Part shown: positions 13,721 to 61,780 of the stretch, piece after piece
Position numbering within the stretch: position 1 is the stretch's first letter
Layout: every line of letters starts with the position of its first letter
Source of the DNA: Dehalococcoidia bacterium
GTDB lineage: Bacteria > Chloroflexota > Dehalococcoidia > UBA2979
Direction of reading: 5' to 3'
NCBI GenBank assembly: GCA_965262725.1
Contig: OZ253555.1
Span: 2,112,001-2,176,000 of the forward strand
Length of the DNA: 64,000 nucleotides
The notes under the pieces: generated by a model
What the model saw: only the letters and a program-made list of their open reading frames with translations
What the model was told of the DNA's origin: nothing
Databases searched by the model: none
Translations under genes and position numbers: made by a program

Positions 13721-16008
13721 CTACTCGGAAGGCGGCGGCGCGGGCGGGACCTCGATCTCGCCGCTGCGGAACCAGACGCCTTGCGGTAGTTCGGCCGGCA
13801 GCAACACGTGCGTCGGCGTGACGGCGTTGCCGTTGGCGTCGCGGAAGCCGAGCTCGATGCGCCCATCGGACAGGCGCCGTGCGCGAATCGTCCCGATCGC
13901 GCTCTCGTTCACCTCGACATCGCTGCTGACGTACCACTGGTCAACGGCGGTATCCACCGGCAGGAAGCGGACAGACGGCAAGACTTGCTGGCCGCTGGCG
14001 AGTTCCACGGCGTGCTCGACGCGGCCGTCCTCGCCCAGCCGGGCGAGGATGCGCAGCGCGTATGGCGATGGCGGTGGCGGTTCCGTCGCCGCGGGCAGTT
14101 CGGGCGCGATGAGCTGGTTGAGCTCTTGGCTACCGCCGAGCCCCAGGCGTCTGAGGAACCGGGAGTTCACCGCATCGACGCCCGCCGCCGTGCAGAGCGT
14201 CGCGTCGGTCGCCAGGCCGTGGGTCGGCAGCGCCGCGCGGAGCTCCGCGTCGAGCTCGAGCAGCCCGTCGCCGTTCTCCACACCAGCCGCTATGAGGGCA
14301 TCGCCGAGCGACGCGTCGCGGCAGGAGGCCATCCGCGCGAGGTCGGCGACCATCGCGCTGACCACGGGATCCTGCCATCCCATCTCGGCGTCGCGGGCGG
14401 CCCGCACGATCTCTCCGGCCGTGATTGCCGGCGCGAGGACGCGCTCGGCGTAGGCGAGCTCGGACTGGAGCGCGAACGCCTCCGCGAAGGAGAGCGCCTC
14501 GCCGTCCGCGACCCGCTCCTGGAGCGCCCTCCAGGAGGCGGCCAACGACCCGTACCGCGCTGCCGCCGTCTCGGCCGTCCCGAGGGTCAGATCCTCGACG
14601 GCGACAGGGCTGATTGCCTCGCCCGAGGCCAGCGCTTCGACCAGCCCGGATCCTGCGATCGCGCTCGCGTACTGCTCCGCGATCGCCCTGGTCAGGGTGG
14701 TCGACGAAGCGTTCTCGAGGCCAGCGGACATCGGCTCGGCCGCGATCGGCAGCGCACCGAGGACCGACTGCTCGAAGATGCCGTCGAGCACCAGGGAGCG
14801 CACGCCTGCCGCGTAGATGGCTCTGGCCCGCAGTGCCTCGTCGATGTCCGCCCCGGGATCGGCGAGCGATGTCACGGAGGTCGTGACGAGCCCCTCTTCG
14901 TCGGCTGAGGCCGTGACCTCGTAGGCCGCACCGTCAACGGTGGCGGCGACCGGGCCGAAGGTCGGGCCGCCCAGCACCATCAGGTTCCGCCAGATGCCGT
15001 GGAACGCGATCTCCTCGCCGGCTTCGTCGAAAGCGATGACCGCGACGAACACCCACGAAGGGCCGGGTTCGCTGAGTGTGACCGCAAACGGCGCCACCCT
15101 GGCGGTCGCGATACTCGTCGCGCTCGCTGTCTGAGCGCCGGAATGATAGGAGACGCCTGCCCGCCACAGCTCCGGCGTCGCGATGATCCGCTCGAACACA
15201 CGAGGCGCCACCACGTACAACACGACGTTGCCGGCGGCGTCAGACAGGTCGCCGCCGCCCGGATTGCCGGTGCGGTAGTGAACGGCGAAGGGCTCGCCCG
15301 CGACCACCTCGTCGGGGGCGTGGGTCGCCTCGATCTTGAGCTGGAAGCGGCCCTGCCGCGCCTCCTCATCCACCAGGTGGACCACGAGGTCGAAGTCAGC
15401 CGTCAGAGGCTGGAGGTCGCGCTGCAGATACGTCGTCGCCTCGATCAGGTAGATACCCGCCGCCAGGTATTGTTCGATGCGTGAGTTGCGGCGGCCGCCA
15501 CCGTCGTCGTTGGCGCCGATGAAGTTCCCATCGGACGAGGCCAGAGAGAGGACCGGGTCGCCGTCGACCGACGTCAGGTCGATGAGCACGCGACCCTCGT
15601 GCGGCAGGTTGAAGGAGTAGGCATAGGCGGGGTGTTCCGCGACCACGCGTGAGCCGCACGTGTCGATCGTCCAGGTGCCGGATGCAGTGAGGTCGATACC
15701 CGGCTCGAGTGTGCCCAGATGTGCCGGCTCGCAACCGGTGACGTGCTCAACGGAAAGCCTGAAGTCCGCCGCGCCGCGTCCGCGTCCGCCGACCGTCGTG
15801 GCCTCGACGAGGTAGATGCCCGCCGCCAGCTCGCGCTCGATGCGCGCGTTGAGGTTGGCGCCGCCGTCGTCGTTGTCCGTGATGCGGGTCCCGTCCTCAT
15901 TCAGGAGGTAGAGGTAGGAATCACCGTCGGTCGACCTCAGGTCGATTCTGATCCGGTCACCCTCGGCGAGTTGGAATCGGTACGTGTGCGCATCGCTGTC
16001 AATGCGAA
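13721..16008 (-). pseudogene. Large secreted protein with two PPC (pre-peptidase C-terminal) domains; 3' part, disrupted by IS1595 element
   Basis: DSYLYLL...DNDDGG..LNARIERELAAGIYLVEATT repeated twice; joins in frame to 19140-19373 (…DCDSRFRI|DSDAHTYRF…). Confidence 0.85.
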
Positions 16009-16069
16009 GGGGACTATATACAATGATGCCCCGGAGTGATAGAATAGGAGTGAAGCGAGGGGAGGGGCA

Positions 16070-17017
16070 ATGGCACGGAAGGCACCGGGACAGCACCGGC
16101 GCGCGGGGATCACCTACGTCTCCCTGGCCAAGATGTTCCCCGACGATGCCGCCGCGGAGAGCTGGTTCGTCGAGGAGCGCTGGCCGAACGGCGTTGCCTG
16201 CCCCAACGACGGCTCACTCAACGTGTTTGCCGGCTCCAAGCACAAGACCATGCCCATGCGCTGCCGCGACTGCCGGAAGCGCTTCAGCGTCCGCACCGGC
16301 ACCGTCATGGAGTCCTCCAACCTCGGCTACCAGACCTGGGCGATCGCCATCTACCTGCTCACCACGTCGCTCAAGGGCGTCTCTTCGATGAAGTTGCACC
16401 GGGATCTCGGCATCACGCAGAAGAGCGCGTGGCACCTGGCCCACCGCATCCGCGAGTCCTTCGATTCGTACGGCGCCGGCTCACCGCTCGACGGCCCGGT
16501 CGAGGTCGACGAGACGTTCGTGGGCGGCCTCGAGAAGAACAAGCACGAGCACAAGCGCCAGCACCAGCGTGGTGGCCCTGCGGGCAAGGCCCCTGTCCTC
16601 GGGATCAGGGACCGCACGAGCGGCGAGGTTCGCGCCCGCGCCGTCTCGCAGACGGACGGCGACACACTGCGCGGATTCGTCCGTGAGAACACCCGTCCGG
16701 GGTCGCAGGTCTACTCGGACGGCCACAGCGCCTACGTCCCGCTTGAGGGCGAGTACAAGCACGACGCCGTCCAGCACTCGGTTGGGACGTACGTGATCGG
16801 GGATGCCCACACCAACGGTATCGAGAGCTTCTGGTCGATGCTGAAGCGCGGCTACGTCGGGACGTATCACTTCATGAGTCCGAAGCACCTCGACCGTTAC
16901 GTGCGGGAGTTCTCAGGCCGTCACAACCAGCGCCCGCTCGACACGATCGACCAGATGCGGGCGGTCTGGCGCGGCATGGTGGGGCGAAGGTTGCGCTACG
17001 ACGAACTCACGGGGTAG
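16070..17017 (+). CDS. IS1595 family transposase
   Basis: Zn ribbon (CPND...CRDC), HTH (SSMKLHRDLGITQKSAW), GPVEVDETFVGG, VYSDG, HTNGIESFWSMLKR. Confidence 0.95.
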   Translation: MARKAPGQHRRAGITYVSLAKMFPDDAAAESWFVEERWPNGVACPNDGSLNVFAGSKHKTMPMRCRDCRKRFSVRTGTVMESSNLGYQTWAIAIYLLTTSLKGVSSMKLHRDLGITQKSAWHLAHRIRESFDSYGAGSPLDGPVEVDETFVGGLEKNKHEHKRQHQRGGPAGKAPVLGIRDRTSGEVRARAVSQTDGDTLRGFVRENTRPGSQVYSDGHSAYVPLEGEYKHDAVQHSVGTYVIGDAHTNGIESFWSMLKRGYVGTYHFMSPKHLDRYVREFSGRHNQRPLDTIDQMRAVWRGMVGRRLRYDELTG

Positions 17018-17033
17018 GAGTTACACAAAATAG

Positions 17034-17276
17034 CTAGGGGGCGGTCCATATCCGTAACAGCATCATCGTTGCCATCACGATGGTCGTGATCGAAGGGACC
17101 GCGACGGCGACCACCAGCCAGCGCGCCATGCTGAACTGACCCTCGATGTTTGCGATTTTGGTCGTTAGTGCTCCCTCGGTTTTGGCAAGGGCAGTTTGCG
17201 TCGCGAAGTAACGGCGGACCTCATCGGCGGCGATATAGCCCATGGCTTTGCCGTTGCCGTCCGGCGCGTCTGTCAT
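17034..17276 (-). CDS. Small coiled-coil protein with C-terminal TM helix (cargo)
   Basis: FATQTALAKTEGALTTKIANIEG then ARWLVVAVAVPSITTIVMATMMLL; ATGA overlap with upstream ORF. Confidence 0.65.
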   Translation of the reverse strand: MTDAPDGNGKAMGYIAADEVRRYFATQTALAKTEGALTTKIANIEGQFSMARWLVVAVAVPSITTIVMATMMLLRIWTAP

Positions 17277-17551
17277 ACCCGGACTCCTTCGATCGCGCGC
17301 AGCCACGCCCATATGCGTGTCCAAGTAGAGCCAGCGATCGGAGCCCTTACGTTTAGGACAAGCACAGGCGATCCGTTGCCTAGACGTGCAACTACATCAG
17401 CGACTTCTAGGTCGTCACCGTGGACGAAGAACACATCATCCGTGAACCGGATGTGGTCATCACCGGGGAATGCCTGAGCGATCTGCTCCCGGATCTGCTG
17501 GTTTGCGTCGGACTCATCATCGTGTAGAAGCACCACATAGGAGTTGATCAT
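17273..17551 (-). CDS. Small hypothetical protein, possible Cas2/VapD-like ferredoxin fold (cargo)
   Basis: 92 aa, MINSYVVLLHDD...IREQI...DVFFV...VLVLNV...WAWL; RBS GAGAG and TGCTACAAT promoter upstream; fold assignment is inference. Confidence 0.6.
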   Translation of the reverse strand: MINSYVVLLHDDESDANQQIREQIAQAFPGDDHIRFTDDVFFVHGDDLEVADVVARLGNGSPVLVLNVRAPIAGSTWTRIWAWLRAIEGVRV

Positions 17552-17705
17552 GGTCGCTCTCTCTTGGTTAGGCACGAGCATTCTCCCTGTGCCGCGGTGC
17601 GGGCGGGATTGTAGCAGGCGCCGTACCCCGCGACGACACCGATCACGCGCCTCAATCGATCCGAAGCGCTGCGCGAGTGTGCGGATGCGCATTCTGCACC
17701 ACGAT

Positions 17706-18161
17706 CTACCGCCAGCCGAGGAGGTCAGAGCATTCCGCCGACTGAGTACCGAAATCCAACTCCCCGCCGCCGTTGTAGTAAGAGGCAGCGTACAGACCGA
17801 CCTGCTCCGCTGCCCCTCTCGTGTAGGTGCCTTCCGACACTACCTGGGCGATCCCGCCGCTGACAGCGGTGATCGACAGTCGATAGCCGGTCCCCTGCTC
17901 GAAGCACGAGCCGTACAGCTCGGCACCCTCGGATGGCACGGCGACCTGCACGACGGTGTCGATGCCGGTGACGGTGACGGACTCGACGGGATTGGCGACG
18001 GTCACGGTCTCGACCGGGTTCGCGATGGTCACCGTGTCGACCGGGTTTGCCACCGTGACCGTCTTGTCCATGACAGACACAAGGATCATCCCCGTCAGGG
18101 CCAACTGGACCGCAACTGCCAGAGCAGCGAGCCCGAACAATATGCTTCTGGCTGTCGGCAT
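17706..18161 (-). CDS. Secreted/membrane-anchored protein with 9-aa tandem repeats (cargo)
   Basis: N-terminal hydrophobic helix; (TVTVANPVD)(TVTIANPVE)(TVTVANPVE)(SVTVTGID); RBS GAGGAGG. Confidence 0.75.
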   Translation of the reverse strand: MPTARSILFGLAALAVAVQLALTGMILVSVMDKTVTVANPVDTVTIANPVETVTVANPVESVTVTGIDTVVQVAVPSEGAELYGSCFEQGTGYRLSITAVSGGIAQVVSEGTYTRGAAEQVGLYAASYYNGGGELDFGTQSAECSDLLGWR

Positions 18162-18195
18162 GGGAGCCTCCTCGCGGAGCAGTCGGGAGTTGACC

Positions 18196-18293
18196 GCTCT
18201 GGGCAGAAGGGCCACACCAGCACCATCCCGCGAGAAGGCACGAGGTCCTCCCGGGCTGCTGAACGGCACGGGTGTTGCGGCTCTGCCCAGAGC
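18196..18293 (-). ncRNA. Putative structured RNA leader, copy A
   Basis: 13-bp closing stem GCTCTGGGCAGAG/TTCTGCCCAGAGC, two nested stems with G-U pairs, apical TCGTGCC; homologous to copy B. Confidence 0.65.
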
Positions 18294-18321
18294 TCGCCGG
18301 TAGCCTTGGCGGTGTGCCCGC

Positions 18322-18378
18322 CGTTTGTCAAGGCGGCGACGCCGCCATTGGACAAACGCCCTAGACGACCGCTAATCT
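18322..18378. promoter_or_regulatory. Divergent promoter region with palindrome GTTTGTC-AA-GGCGGCG-A-CGCCGCC-ATT-GGACAAAC
   Basis: TTGACA on minus strand; TGGACA...TAATCT on plus strand; lies between the two RNA leaders. Confidence 0.55.
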
Positions 18379-18389
18379 GCCCTCCGTAA

Positions 18390-18488
18390 GCTCTCCGCAA
18401 AGAGCTCGGACACCGGCGCGAACGAAAGCGAGCAGGGGCCTTCGTGCCTCCTTGCGGCTCGTGTCGGTGCGGCCCCTTTGCGGAGAGC
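18390..18488 (+). ncRNA. Putative structured RNA leader, copy B
   Basis: Perfect 13-bp stem GCTCTCCGCAAAG/CTTTGCGGAGAGC, nested CACCGGCGCGA/TCGTGTCGGTG, apical TCGTGCC. Confidence 0.65.
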
Positions 18489-18565
18489 GGTCTACCCCGC
18501 TTGCGCCGCAAGGGGGCTCCACGTGACCCCTCCCGGCTGCGCGCTGCCGACGCCCGCGAAGGAAG

Positions 18566-18748
18566 GTGATTCAAATGGAAGTGCTCCTGATTCTCGCGGT
18601 CTTGTGGGGGCTGCCCGTGGTGATCATCGGACTGATGGCCGACAGCCGCGGCCGCTCGCTGGCGTGGGTGATCTGGCCGCTTATGCTCGGCTGGATCGGC
18701 TGGGTTGTCGCCTTCCTGGCGCTGGTGAACCAGCCGAAGACGAAGTAG
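18566..18748 (+). CDS. Small two-TM membrane protein (cargo)
   Basis: MEVLLILAVLWGLPVVIIGLMADSRGRSLAWVIWPLMLGWIGWVVAFLAL; RBS AAGGAAGGTGA. Confidence 0.75.
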   Translation: MIQMEVLLILAVLWGLPVVIIGLMADSRGRSLAWVIWPLMLGWIGWVVAFLALVNQPKTK

Positions 18749-18839
18749 GTCGCGCCCCCACAGGTTTACGCTGACGCTCACTGGACAACCGCCATGGGGG
18801 ACGCCACACTTTCTGAGTGAAGGGCGGGAGGAGCACCCC

Positions 18840-18965
18840 ATGGGTAACGAGAAGGATCTGCGGATTCCGACGACGCCGAAGGAGCTGGCGAAGGCGATTC
18901 TGAGCACGCCTCCGAAGCGCCGCTATCCACGGGGAGCACCACCACCCGCTTCCGTCACCAGGTAG
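18840..18965 (+). CDS. 41-aa small protein (cargo)
   Basis: MGNEKDLRIPTTPKELAKAILSTPPKRRYPRGAPPPASVTR with GGAGGAG RBS; below ORF-track cutoff. Confidence 0.5.
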   Translation: MGNEKDLRIPTTPKELAKAILSTPPKRRYPRGAPPPASVTR

Positions 18966-18969
18966 GAGG

Positions 18970-19046
18970 TGGCGCCGGGGAAGGGTCTCGAACCCTCGTC
19001 TTCCCGATTAACAATCGGGCGCTCTCACCTACTGAGCTACCCCGGC
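18970..19046 (-). tRNA. tRNA-Asn (GTT), CCA encoded, inside the transposon
   Basis: GCCGGGG TA GCTC AGTAGGTGA GAGC G CCCGA TTGTTAA TCGGG AAGAC GAGGG TTCGAGA CCCTT CCCCGGC G CCA; full cloverleaf, 77 nt. Confidence 0.9.
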
Positions 19047-58874: not shown

Positions 58875-60955
58875 CGCGCCCCTTCGGCGGCGCGGCGGGC
58901 GGTGGACTCGGGGAAGAGCACCTCGCCGTGAAGCGATCCGATCGCCGACTCGTCGATGCGGCCGGAGAGGAACTGCCACCAGTCCTGAAGCAGCGAGCCG
59001 TCGGCGATCCCCGAGAGCACGCTCCCGACGCTCGCCGACTTGTAGCGCCTCTCGGGGAACCACGAGCGGTGGCGGTAGGGAACGACGCGCCCGTAGGCCT
59101 CCCGCAGGTCGGGCCCCTCGTCCAGCGTCCACGAGGTCGCGATCAGGACCCTCCCCGGCTCCGGCTCCTCCGCGCGCAGCATCTCGCGGGTCGCGTAGAG
59201 GACCTGCGAGTAGTCCCTGAGGTACCACGCCCACGGCCAGGAGAGCGAGGCCGTCGTTTCCACCATGATCGGGAGCCCGAGCCCCGTCCCGGTCGCCTCG
59301 CCGTAGGCCGCGAGCTCGCGCGCGATCTCGGCCACGTCGGGGCTCGTCTGCGTGTAGATGAGGGGCTCGACCGGCGTGGCGGGGTGGACGTAGGAGACCT
59401 CCGTCCCGGTGCGGAGGGTCAGCAGCCCGAGCGCGAGGACGAGGACCGCGGCGGCTCCGGCGACGCCGAGCCGGCGGGGCCCTGCCGGGGCGGCTCTCGC
59501 TCCCGCGGCCCGAAGCCGCGAGACCGCCTCCCCGGCGACGAGGCCCGAGAGGAGGATGAGCGGGAGCGCCAGGTGGACCGTGAGCCACGGCATCTTCTCG
59601 CCGGCGAGCGAGAGGGAGACGAACATCCAGACGAACCACCAGGCGAGGAGCCGCGCGAGGCGGTGGCCGCGCGCCAGCAGCCAGGCGCCGCCCACAACGC
59701 CGGCTGCGAGCGCCAGGGGCTCGTAGAGCGGGAGCATGAAGGCGTAGTAGAAGCCGGGCTGCTGCCCGCGCTGCACGTCCTGCTGCGCCAGCCAGTAGTC
59801 GAGCGAACCCCACAGCCCCGAGTGGAGGCCGCCCGGGTTCGTGCCGAGCGTCGTGTAGAGCGGGACGTAGATCGCGGCGAAGACGGCCGCAGCGGCGAGC
59901 CACCACCGCCGGTTCCAGAGCAACCCGACCGCCGCCGCGCCGCCGACGAGCACGGTGATCGCGACCACCGAGACCGCGCGCTCGCGGCCCTCGGTCAGCT
60001 CACCCACGGCCGCCTCGACCGGGAGCTGGGCGAACGCGGCGATCTGGGTCGCGGTCAAAGTCCCCACCACGACGAGCAGGTCGCAGTCTGAGCTCCACGA
60101 GCCGAGCCCCCACCTCCGGCGCAGCGCCCCGGCGAGCGGCCAGAGCGCGACCAGCGCCCACGCCGCCGGCAGGAGCGCGGCCCAGCAGAGCAGGCGCCTC
60201 CTTCCCGAGAGCCGCTCGGGGACGAGCCTCCACGCGACGGCGGCGTCGAGGTAGAGGAGCAGCATCGCGGCGGTGAGGTAGGCCGTCTCCTTCGTCGTGA
60301 AGGAGAGCGCGAGCGCCGCCGCGGCGAGCAGCAGCCAGCCGCCCCCGCGGATGCGCCTCTCCCCATCCGCGGGCGTCTCTCCGTCACCGTGCCCGCGCTG
60401 CTCGCGGTAGCGCCAGACGGCGGCCGCGAACAGCGTCGTGAAGAGGGCGAAGGGGAGGTCGTTGCGGGCGAAGCGCGAGTAGTAGAGGAGGACCGGCGAG
60501 AGCGCGAGCAGCGCCGCCGCGACCACGACCCCCGTCGTGCCGAGCCGGCGGCGGAGCAGCAGGGGCGCGGCGACGAGCGCGGCGCCGGCCAGGGCGGACG
60601 GGAATCGCGAGATCACTTCGCTCTCGCCGAAGAGGCGGAAGGCGCCGGCCAGCACGTGGAACTGGAGGGGCCCGTGCATGAGGGGGTCGTGGAGGTAGCC
60701 TCGCCCCTCGGCGAAGTACCAGGCGAAGGTCGCGTGCAGCGACTCGTCATGATGCATCGGGCGCGCATCGAGATCGACGAGGCGCATCGCCAGCGCCGCG
60801 GCGGCGAGCGCGAGCACCGACCACGTCACGGCATCCGGCCGGAAGCCCTGGATCGCCCTCACGGCTTCGCTCTCATTCCGGCCGGCGCACGCCCGCGGGT
60901 CCTCCCGCGAGCCACGACGCCCGCCGCGGCGCGGGGCGGACCCCGGTAGATCCAC
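58871..60955 (-). CDS. TIGR03663/Agl23-like membrane glycosyltransferase (GT-C); start uncertain
   Basis: RPMHHDESLHA, DPLMHGPLQF, YYSRFARND, TTKE, AGEKMPWL, LIYTQTS, WPWAWYLRD. Confidence 0.9.
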   Translation of the reverse strand: MDLPGSAPRRGGRRGSREDPRACAGRNESEAVRAIQGFRPDAVTWSVLALAAAALAMRLVDLDARPMHHDESLHATFAWYFAEGRGYLHDPLMHGPLQFHVLAGAFRLFGESEVISRFPSALAGAALVAAPLLLRRRLGTTGVVVAAALLALSPVLLYYSRFARNDLPFALFTTLFAAAVWRYREQRGHGDGETPADGERRIRGGGWLLLAAAALALSFTTKETAYLTAAMLLLYLDAAVAWRLVPERLSGRRRLLCWAALLPAAWALVALWPLAGALRRRWGLGSWSSDCDLLVVVGTLTATQIAAFAQLPVEAAVGELTEGRERAVSVVAITVLVGGAAAVGLLWNRRWWLAAAAVFAAIYVPLYTTLGTNPGGLHSGLWGSLDYWLAQQDVQRGQQPGFYYAFMLPLYEPLALAAGVVGGAWLLARGHRLARLLAWWFVWMFVSLSLAGEKMPWLTVHLALPLILLSGLVAGEAVSRLRAAGARAAPAGPRRLGVAGAAAVLVLALGLLTLRTGTEVSYVHPATPVEPLIYTQTSPDVAEIARELAAYGEATGTGLGLPIMVETTASLSWPWAWYLRDYSQVLYATREMLRAEEPEPGRVLIATSWTLDEGPDLREAYGRVVPYRHRSWFPERRYKSASVGSVLSGIADGSLLQDWWQFLSGRIDESAIGSLHGEVLFPESTARRAAEGAR

Positions 60956-61129
60956 GCCGGTGGGACCCGGCCGCGCGGGAGGCTCCGTGGATCCGCGATG
61001 TCATGCTCACGTCCCCGGCACCGTGCCGCAAGCTCGCCCCGCCTACCCCGCCCACCCCGCCGCGCCACGCGCGATCGCGTGATGAAGCAACGTCGCGCCG
61101 GGCCGCTCGGCGGGAACCCGGCGGATCCG

Positions 61130-61780
61130 TCAGGGCGCCGGCTCGCGCAGCCAGGCGAGGTCGAACTGCGCCAGGTCGTCGATCAGCCAGTCGGGGGTCG
61201 CGAGCGCGTCTCCGCCAGGCTCGCCGCGCAGGAGTACAACGCGCATCCCTGCGGCCCTGGCCGACTGCCCGCCGGCCGGCGCGTCCTCTATGGCGATACA
61301 TGCCGCGGGATCGACGCCGAGCCCGCGGGCGGCCTCGAGGTAGATCTCGGGGTCGGGCTTCCCCGCCGCCACCTCGTCGCCGGCGACGAGGTGCCCGAAG
61401 CACTCCCGGAGGCCGGCGCCTTCGAGTCCCGCCTCGACCCAGCTCCGGGGCGAGGAGCTGGCGACGGCGATCGGGACGCCGGCATCGGCGAGACGCCCCA
61501 CCAGTTCGCGCGCGCCTGGGATCGGCGCGATGCCGGCCCGGTAGCGGGCGGCGATCTGGCCTCCGTAGCGCGCCTCGAAGTCCCCGCGCGGCGCCGTCAG
61601 CGCGTGGCGCGAGCAGAGGGCGTCCCAGGTGTCCACAAGCGTCATCCCGAGCGTGCGGGCGTGGTCTTCCGCCGACCACGGGAGACCCCACGCGGCGAGG
61701 ACCCCGCGCAGCACCACGTAGTGGACCGGCTCGGAGTCGAGCAGCACGCCGTCCATGTCGAAGATGACCGCCGCCGGCAT
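61130..61780 (-). CDS. HAD-family phosphatase
   Basis: FDMDGVLLDSE, VASSS, GKPDPEIY, IEDAPAG. Confidence 0.93.
   Translation of the reverse strand: MPAAVIFDMDGVLLDSEPVHYVVLRGVLAAWGLPWSAEDHARTLGMTLVDTWDALCSRHALTAPRGDFEARYGGQIAARYRAGIAPIPGARELVGRLADAGVPIAVASSSPRSWVEAGLEGAGLRECFGHLVAGDEVAAGKPDPEIYLEAARGLGVDPAACIAIEDAPAGGQSARAAGMRVVLLRGEPGGDALATPDWLIDDLAQFDLAWLREPAP

Follow-up and report, generated by a model that had tools for sequence, protein, structure and literature searches.

What are the two divergent, look-alike hairpins that lie back to back between small genes in a Dehalococcoidia genome, and what do they do for the genes behind them? The locus belongs to a stretch of 64,000 nucleotides (nt) from Dehalococcoidia bacterium (GenBank assembly GCA_965262725.1, contig OZ253555.1, positions 2,112,001 to 2,176,000; hereafter the window, with position 1 as its first letter). 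A first-pass annotation, made from the sequence alone, took the pair for twin RNA structures with compensatory base changes, each ahead of a small membrane or secreted protein. We find that the twin structures belong to a family of mRNA leaders in Chloroflexota that had not been described before. The leader contains an anti-Shine-Dalgarno (anti-SD) segment that complements the Shine-Dalgarno (SD) region of the gene behind it, and in the window both copies lie inside an IS1595-family transposon. We consider it likely that they are the 5′ untranslated leaders of passenger-gene cassettes in this transposon and that they gate translation in cis.

A family of structured leaders in Chloroflexota

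The two window copies, A on the minus strand and B on the plus strand (Table 1), have diverged, with a mean column identity of 79% when aligned. The words quoted by the first-pass annotation are present in the sequence, and the sense strand of each copy folds as a single long hairpin, with a free energy of −60.7 kcal/mol for copy A (z −3.07; equalled by 1 of 200 shuffles) and −60.1 kcal/mol for copy B (z −3.08; equalled by 2 of 200). The antisense strands of A and B fold more poorly, with z of −0.61 and −2.47, respectively. Across the family, the leader is about 115–147 nt long and lies 5′ of a gene. Its hairpin of 75–106 nt is irregular and is composed of helices P1 (13 base pairs, bp) and P2 (about 12 bp). 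The P1 strands are GGGCAGAG/CTTCTGCCC in copy A and CCGCAAAG/CTTTGCGG in copy B.

Partial extra copies elsewhere in the genome were first seen by BLAST. A covariance model with copies A, B and C as its seed (model R1) recovered a fourth copy, D, which was absent from the seed (E 3.2e-6), and matched 11 of 151 relatives with the window genome counted, that is, 10 others of 150. A second model built on 15 copies (model R2) matched 17 of 99 genomes of the taxonomic family, mostly in two genera and with six copies in the window's genome, as well as 12 of 151 genomes sampled in the class and 6 of 151 sampled in the phylum (the window genome counted in each); at the level of the order, the search covered the same 99 genomes as for the family. 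Altogether, 55 leader copies were collected among the Chloroflexota genomes searched.

Simple pattern scans were less selective. Among 80 loci listed from a scan of named genomes, most were unrelated SD hairpins; the strong model matches among them (L097, L102 and L086; E ≤2e-4) are all from Dehalococcoidia, and the weak ones (E 0.04–0.43) comprise two Dehalococcoidia loci (L138 and L116) and four loci in Aminicenantes, Actinomycetota and Archangium records (L065, L125, L137 and L105). A pattern scan of metagenomes gave one stretch, a true member at 91.5 bits, and the plasmid and phage collections gave no leader match.

A search of the whole window against Rfam 15 (4,227 models) at the gathering score returned tRNA-Asn alone. 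Positions 17900–18800 gave no match with E up to 10, with the T-box, c4 antisense RNA, Chloroflexi-1 and riboswitch models included. At 20 other leader loci, searched with E up to 1, we obtained tRNAs and four low-scoring matches, all off the leader. Literature searches found no description of the leader motif. The first-pass proposal of a new cis-acting structured RNA family is thus borne out by the lack of an Rfam match, by many covarying homologues, and by the position of the copies on the sense strand just upstream of an open reading frame (ORF).

The structure itself is conserved by compensatory change. In the 55 copies, 91.1% of 1,494 alignment cells of P1, P2 and a local helix near the apex (P3, described below) are paired, and both sides have changed at 25 of 29 pairs, in 421 cells, so the compensation first noted between the two window copies persists throughout the homologues found with the models. 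The covariation score of these helices is 0.727 compared with 0.202 for shuffled alignments, and none of 500 shuffles reaches it; when the partner is slid by 1–3 columns, pairing falls to 38–48%. In addition, P1 and P2 of 36 copies contain 87 G-U cells and 16 A-C cells among 848, which fits an RNA read on the strand of the gene and extends to the family a strand asymmetry first noted in the window copies. Strongly conserved nucleotides are restricted to the four terminal bp of P1 (GCUC/GAGC), the anti-SD, the SD, and an SD-like decoy within the hairpin.

An anti-SD segment with two possible partners

The 3′ side of the apical part of the hairpin, GUGCCUCCUUGCGG or a CCUCC-containing variant of it, complements the SD region, CCGCAAGGAGGC or a variant, in front of the start codon. 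The 16S rRNA of the host ends in ...CACCUCCUUUCU, indicating that the leader segment mimics the anti-SD of the ribosome itself. The long-range helix between anti-SD and SD comprises 11 pairs and is paired in 97.5% of 599 cells across the 55 copies, in an alignment and model made without any constraint for this helix. Specifically, 43 cells at 5 of the 11 pairs are changed on both sides, for example from U-A to C-G at three positions. None of 500 shuffles matches the paired percentage, the cell count or the score, and slid controls are 46–66% paired. Consistent with these counts, the mean duplex energy is −25.6 kcal/mol compared with −12.0 kcal/mol for shuffled anti-SD segments. An upstream complement of the SD whose covariation preserves pairing is the sequence signature of a leader that sequesters its SD at the level of translation, and the family carries it.

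The same segment can also pair within the hairpin. In the minimum-energy fold of the hairpin alone, at least half of the anti-SD is bound to an upstream partner in 53 of 55 copies, and in 39 of 55 this partner, the decoy, includes a word resembling an SD. The average cost of releasing the anti-SD is +11.9 kcal/mol; if a pseudoknot penalty of +5.5 kcal/mol is assumed, 35 of 36 copies favour the SD-bound state. The energy comparison thus suggests that the decoy-bound and SD-bound states are of comparable stability. In copy A, the anti-SD may be bound by the decoy at 18246–18255 or by the SD region, with a duplex of −26.5 kcal/mol; in copy B, the corresponding partners are a decoy at about 18428–18440 and the SD region, with a duplex of −28.3 kcal/mol. 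A linker of 13–21 nt separates the hairpin from the SD region across the family.

The anti-SD with its choice of SD or decoy, which the first-pass annotation overlooked, is therefore the conserved switch-like feature of the family. The annotation had instead proposed a competing 5′ mini-hairpin, GCTCT-loop-AGAGC. This mini-hairpin does form in both window copies (−5.5 and −6.0 kcal/mol), but it reaches −4 kcal/mol or better in just 16 of 36 copies, and we rejected its competition with P1 as the conserved switch because it is confined to a subfamily. The words that had been singled out as conserved and unpaired fared unevenly: TCGTGCC lies within or adjoins the long-range SD helix, GGCCC is not family-wide, and GGTCwAC is partly conserved.

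Two further candidates were set aside. Pairing of the 3′ strand of P1 with the SD, the first suggestion of RNAalifold, has a family mean of −12.3 kcal/mol compared with −9.9 kcal/mol for shuffled sequences; cognate pairs, at −12.3 kcal/mol, are close to non-cognate ones at −11.8 kcal/mol, and the pairing is strong in copy B alone (−19.9 kcal/mol). An upstream ORF opening at a codon in the apical loop was considered in 36 copies, where the codon is AUG or GUG in 25, GCG in 10 and GGG in 1, and the frames run for 6–200 codons with no conserved stop; in the 55 copies, the apical-loop triplet is GUG in 20, AUG in 18, GCG in 13 and another in 4.

An anti-SD poised between decoy and SD follows the logic of a translational expression platform, and the internal loops between P1 and P2 keep their position, as they would if the P1–P2 hairpin were the aptamer of a metabolite or ion riboswitch whose ligand set the partner of the anti-SD. 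However, outside the terminal pairs of P1, strong conservation is found in the anti-SD, SD and decoy only, and loops such as GGCCC vary freely. Because the loop and junction sequences vary, there is no conserved ligand-binding core. The alignments contain neither invariant unpaired nucleotides nor a single pathway or transporter theme, and the genes downstream, which encode lipoproteins, leucine-rich repeat (LRR) proteins, a protease and methylase-HNH fusions, have no metabolic theme either. With no Rfam match in addition, we regard a riboswitch as distinctly improbable.

Transposon, cargo genes and promoters

In the window, both leaders lie in the cargo cassettes of an IS1595-family transposon with defined boundaries (Table 1), a context that the first-pass annotation, which spoke of an element, had not recognised. 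The features are listed in the table together with the parts of the two leaders.

Table 1. Positions of the leaders, their parts and the surrounding features in the window
Feature	Position	Strand	Basis or remark
Leader copy A, whole model match	18158–18293	−	R1 144.1 bits; R2 121.5 bits; fold
Copy A hairpin	18196–18293	−	linker 18178–18195; ATG 18159–18161
Copy A anti-SD segment GUGCCUUCUCGCGG	18228–18241	−	alignment columns, helix counts
Copy A SD region CCGCGAGGAGGC	18166–18177	−	4 nt before ATG of the 151-aa (amino-acid) protein
Leader copy B, whole model match	18390–18526	+	R1 137.5 bits; R2 122.2 bits; fold
Copy B P1	18390–18402 with 18476–18488	+	
Copy B P2	18410–18421 with 18459–18470	+	
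Copy B anti-SD segment GUGCCUCCUUGCGG	18444–18457	+	helix counts
Copy B linker	18489–18505	+	
Copy B SD region	18506–18517	+	
Copy B GTG	18523–18525	+	
Cargo gene behind leader A, 151 aa	17706–18161	−	N-terminal hydrophobic anchor or signal; VTVANPVxT repeats
Two more ORFs after the 151-aa gene	17273–17692, 17034–17324	−	
57-aa membrane protein 3′ of leader B	18575–18748	+	own SD 18558–18566; begins 50 nt after the leader-controlled GTG
Candidate divergent promoter region between the leaders	18294–18389	.	read from sequence
IS1595-family transposon, 3,131 bp	16009–19139	.	inverted repeats, 8-bp duplication, in silico excision
Left target-site duplication AATGCGAA	16001–16008	.	right copy 19140–19147
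Left terminal inverted repeat GGGGACTATATAC...	16009–16034	+	77% complementary to 19114–19139
Right terminal inverted repeat	19114–19139	−	repeat pairing
IS1595-family DDE transposase, 315 aa	16070–17017	+	DDE_Tnp_IS1595 PF12762 1.6e-39; NF033547 5.6e-55
tRNA-Asn(GTT), cargo just inside the right inverted repeat	18970–19046	−	tRNA model match

The transposon contains the transposase gene, leader A and the three minus-strand ORFs behind it, leader B with the 57-aa ORF, a 41-codon ORF, and the gene for tRNA-Asn. The transposase also carries a zinc ribbon (Zn_ribbon_IS1595 PF12760, 1.3e-5), and the sole sigma-70-like promoter found by a scan, TATACA-17-TAGAAT at 16017–16045, lies in the left repeat and faces the transposase gene. 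Removal of 16009–19147 in silico gives one ORF of 837 aa with a signal peptide; the insertion looks recent, since the frame is exact once the element and one copy of the duplication are removed. The split gene for this secreted protein occupies 13721–16008 and 19148–19373, both on the minus strand, with the signal peptide in 19148–19373, and its C-terminal fragment contains a pre-peptidase C-terminal domain.

Copy C belongs to another IS1595-family element, a BLAST match of 2,387 bp that is present in two genomic copies of 99.7% identity (G000:C1:1979194-1981580 and 58966-61351), in opposite orientation and 1.9 Mb apart. Besides the transposase gene, this relative of the window's transposon contains an ORF of 114 aa and, with leader C, the gene for an exported protein of 164 aa. 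Its two copies have the same kind of inverted repeats, and each has its own 8-bp duplication (AAAACAAT and AAAGCGAA). The pattern of the copy C inverted repeats, searched with up to 3 mismatches, has no match in the window. The IS1595 DDE domain has six matches in this genome, five of them no more than 5 kb from a leader.

Beyond this genome the association is partial. The flanking sequence retrieved contains a transposase, whole or fragmentary, for 22 of 50 copies and for 2 of 5 copies from the phylum sample (24 of 55); in this count a single transposase serves both A and B, and C1 and C2 represent two occurrences of the same element. Ten insertions have two recognisable ends, and in all of them the inverted repeats enclose the leader, which may point either way; these ends come from an inverted-repeat motif scan, which replaced chance automatic repeat calls at L214, L221 and L191. 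At least 28 of the 50 copies have no transposase in the fetched flanks, indicating that the leader occurs outside recognisable transposons too.

The hairpin is an imperfect inverted repeat of conserved structure and variable sequence, it sits inside a transposon next to varied cargo, and two near-identical leaders, L053 and L180, precede unrelated ORFs. These features would also suit an element that works as DNA, a hairpin in single-stranded or cruciform DNA serving as a site of cassette recombination or transposition in the manner of integron attC. Yet the place and orientation of the leader in the transposon vary, while it is always on the sense strand upstream of an ORF with fixed spacing of SD and start codon. 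Furthermore, G-U cells exceed A-C cells, the covarying partner of the apical segment is a ribosome-binding site, transposase-free flanks are common, and attC-like core sites were not seen in an inspection made by eye only. We consider a DNA-level role very improbable.

L053 and L180 are also of interest as a pair: P1 and P2 are near-identical, the ORFs encode unrelated proteins of 230 aa and 68 aa, and the similarity stops at the start codon, as if the leader were a point of cargo exchange, judging from these sequences.

Transfer RNA genes accompany several leader-bearing IS1595 elements. The tRNA-Asn(GTT) in the window has a second genomic counterpart of clearly different sequence (G000:C1:3463787-3463862), and tRNA genes lie in or beside other such elements, with tRNA-Phe at copy E, tRNA-Trp at L218 and L221, an odd tRNA at L227, and others at L202 and L205. 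Such company would be natural for a T-box-like leader sensing the tRNAs that ride on the same transposons. Against this stand the lack of a T-box match, both in the window and at the 20 other loci, the lack of family-wide conservation of the UGGC-like word seen in copies A and B, and the finding that most copies have no tRNA gene nearby. A tRNA sensor is thus, in our estimation, extremely unlikely.

In 45 of 55 copies, the start codon of the leader itself opens an ORF of at least 35 aa. Among these 45 ORFs, 29 encode an N-terminal hydrophobic stretch and 14 a lipobox-like cysteine; exported proteins predominate among the genes behind the leaders. The cargo proteins are mostly 100 to more than 500 aa long, and most have no family match; the recognised domains comprise the leucine-rich repeats of two proteins (376 to more than 500 aa), a trypsin-like peptidase, and a DNA methylase fused to an HNH endonuclease. 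Fusions of an N6/N4 DNA methylase to HNH follow a subgroup of the leaders (L207:169-1497 and L206:119-1504, both on the minus strand; also L102, L200 and L208), and unchecked translation of these genes could be harmful to the host. Exported proteins behind leaders L051, L053, L184 and L185 have a starting repeat, EVRIxARRLDDGRxEFAL, which no Pfam family covers; a motif resembling it ends the protein disrupted by the transposon (window 13721–14000, minus strand).

The cargo ORFs of the window have no Pfam, NCBIfam or PADLOC family match. The early view that a small membrane or secreted protein follows each copy holds directly for copy A, with its 151-aa protein, and does not hold for copy B, where the 57-aa ORF lies 50 nt beyond the controlled start. 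The GTG of copy B instead opens an 83-codon frame (18523–18774, plus strand) that is rich in Pro, Arg and Gly and overlaps the 57-aa ORF in a different frame. Either of these overlapping frames may be the one translated, or the cassette of copy B may be rearranged.

The small hydrophobic ORFs, 57 aa behind copy B and 41 aa behind L086, had invited an analogy with type I toxin mRNAs and with phage C4-type control, in which antisense RNA would control a small toxic membrane peptide. Type I toxin mRNAs likewise mask their SD with upstream complements. The analogy does not survive the wider family, in which the same leader precedes much longer proteins, including the LRR proteins, the trypsin-like protease and the methylase-HNH fusions. 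Few of the ORFs downstream are below about 60 aa, the size expected of such toxins. Moreover, neither c4 nor any other Rfam family matches at E up to 10, there is no sign of an antisense partner, and the window copies are divergent and do not overlap. We therefore find a type I or c4-like system hardly credible.

The 5′ boundary of the leader appears to be set by transcription. A TANNNT hexamer ends 4–10 nt before the first leader base in 31 of 55 copies, compared with 32 of 1,100 control positions, an enrichment suggesting that the leader probably begins at the transcription start, that is, at its first base or a few bases from it. Between the two window leaders, mirrored −35-like boxes, TTGACA toward A and TGGACA toward B, form a palindrome at about 18322–18360. 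The candidate promoters read TTGACA-18-AAGGCT for copy A and TGGACA-18-TAATCT for copy B, with the −10 box 11 nt upstream.

In most copies the helix begins at the inferred +1, and the hairpins, with −44 to −67 kcal/mol, are highly stable. Both features would be expected of a 5′-terminal stabiliser, a hairpin that shields the mRNA from 5′-end-dependent decay while the SD complementarity has little regulatory effect, and SD-like words within 5′ leaders are known stabilisers in Bacillus. A stabiliser, however, needs neither a covarying 11-bp complement of its own SD region nor a decoy partner, and we judge stabilisation as the only function to be unlikely. As an additional function it is probable, because the 5′ end of the leader is base-paired.

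Proposed gating of translation and its relation to known systems

In the mechanism that we favour, translational gating in cis, the leader would adopt two states. In the ON state, the anti-SD would be held by the SD-like decoy just upstream, in the local helix P3, and the real SD would be free. In the OFF state, the anti-SD would pair with the real SD 13–21 nt past the hairpin, in a helix of 11–14 bp that forms a pseudoknot with P2 and would mask the ribosome-binding site. The sequences establish the family, helices P1 and P2, the covarying complementarity of anti-SD and SD, and the transposon with its ends; we infer that the leader is transcribed from its 5′ end, toggles between these states and thereby affects translation. 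Together with its promoter, it may constitute a portable expression module placed before unrelated transposon cargo and before chromosomal Chloroflexota genes.

Three triggers could be envisaged. The one we prefer is delayed or kinetic refolding, in which the decoy helix would form during transcription and the stronger SD helix later. Second in preference is processing by RNase III, which is encoded in this genome and might cut the stem of about 25 bp; third is a trans-acting RNA or protein. CsrA-type control was rejected because a search of this genome (91.55% complete) for a CsrA gene returned none.

Several observations weigh against this mechanism. In the anti-SD:SD helix, the changes are limited to 5 of 11 pairs, many of the changed cells share inherited changes, and one measure, the number of pairs changed on both sides, is matched by 79 of 500 shuffles; copy L197 has lost its SD complement. 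P3 is 81% paired, with no double-sided change in any of its four modelled pairs, and its register varies among copies. The alignment of P1 and P2 was fitted to the structure of the model, which favours that structure; two checks are independent of the fit, namely the compensatory pairs in a structure-blind MAFFT alignment of four copies and the discovery of copy D outside the seed. The pseudoknot penalty used in the energy comparison is our own assumption, and the linker of 13–21 nt would need to return along about 25 bp of stacked helix. With regard to the genes, the start codon of 10 of 55 leaders opens no ORF as long as 35 aa, and the masked GTG of copy B opens a frame without recognisable features rather than that of the 57-aa membrane protein. 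Finally, no TANNNT hexamer lies 4–10 nt upstream of copy A or copy B, and a consensus promoter scan calls no promoter between them.

A broader proposal, possible but doubtful at present, is that the promoter and leader form a bistable cargo gate of the Chloroflexota IS1595 lineage, which would keep almost any cargo, be it secreted proteins, lipoproteins or methylase-HNH nucleases, translationally checked. The check might be a folding timer that runs after transcription or after arrival in a new host, or a host or transposon factor that displaces the decoy, and the conserved leader might in addition be a homology patch for the swapping of cargo. If this proposal is correct, the leader would be the first dedicated cis-regulatory RNA for the passenger genes of insertion sequences.

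The leader family is of wider relevance in several respects. Chloroflexota, and Dehalococcoidia especially, are environmentally abundant and genetically hard, and very few regulatory RNAs are known from them; the present family is well supported, its proposed mechanism can be read from decoy, anti-SD and SD, and in vitro assays of that mechanism would not require a culture. Should the gating work as we propose, the module would also be a compact part of natural origin with which to control translation in GC-rich hosts. The association with IS1595 transposons of variable cargo, often including a tRNA gene, suggests that certain insertion sequences bring a standard expression-control module for their passenger genes. 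This is relevant to the question of how secreted proteins and nuclease-methylase genes can be brought into new hosts by mobile elements without harm.

The c4 antisense RNA of P1/P7-type phages (Rfam RF01695) is listed in PMC2864571. It resembles the leader in being a structured RNA in a mobile element, a likeness drawn by the first-pass annotation only; the leader does not match the c4 model and would act in cis, from a sense-strand position ahead of each gene.

The transposon resembles other IS1595 insertion sequences with passenger genes in its DDE_Tnp_IS1595 domain and zinc ribbon, its inverted repeats, its 8-bp duplications and its extra genes. It differs in what accompanies them, since our literature searches turned up no account of a structured leader RNA, a conserved promoter-leader module or cargo tRNAs in the IS1595 family. 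In IS10 and IS50, a fold-back structure inhibits translation of the transposase, in read-through transcripts only. These elements and the present one have in common an RNA structure within a transposable element that masks, or would mask, a ribosome-binding site; here, by contrast, passenger genes carry the leader in their native transcript, and the left repeat supplies the transposase with a promoter of its own.

Translation of the maturation gene of phage MS2 is controlled via delayed RNA folding, and hok mRNA forms fold-back structures. As in those systems, an upstream complement pairs with the SD over a long distance, and the local hairpin could be a kinetic trap, such that the nascent RNA alone would be translated. 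The leader has no homology of sequence or structure to either, is not viral, and precedes mostly non-toxin genes.

In translational riboswitch platforms, including the pseudoknot types preQ1-II and SAM-II, an anti-SD pairs with an alternative partner or with the SD. The leader has the same upstream anti-SD with two partners, and its SD helix likewise forms a pseudoknot with an upstream stem. In contrast to these platforms, it has no conserved aptamer core, metabolic theme or Rfam match, and in their place has a long covarying rod and an SD-like decoy. The class of mechanism is thus familiar, whereas the leader family, its design of decoy, anti-SD and SD, and its link to transposon cargo are, as far as we have checked, new.

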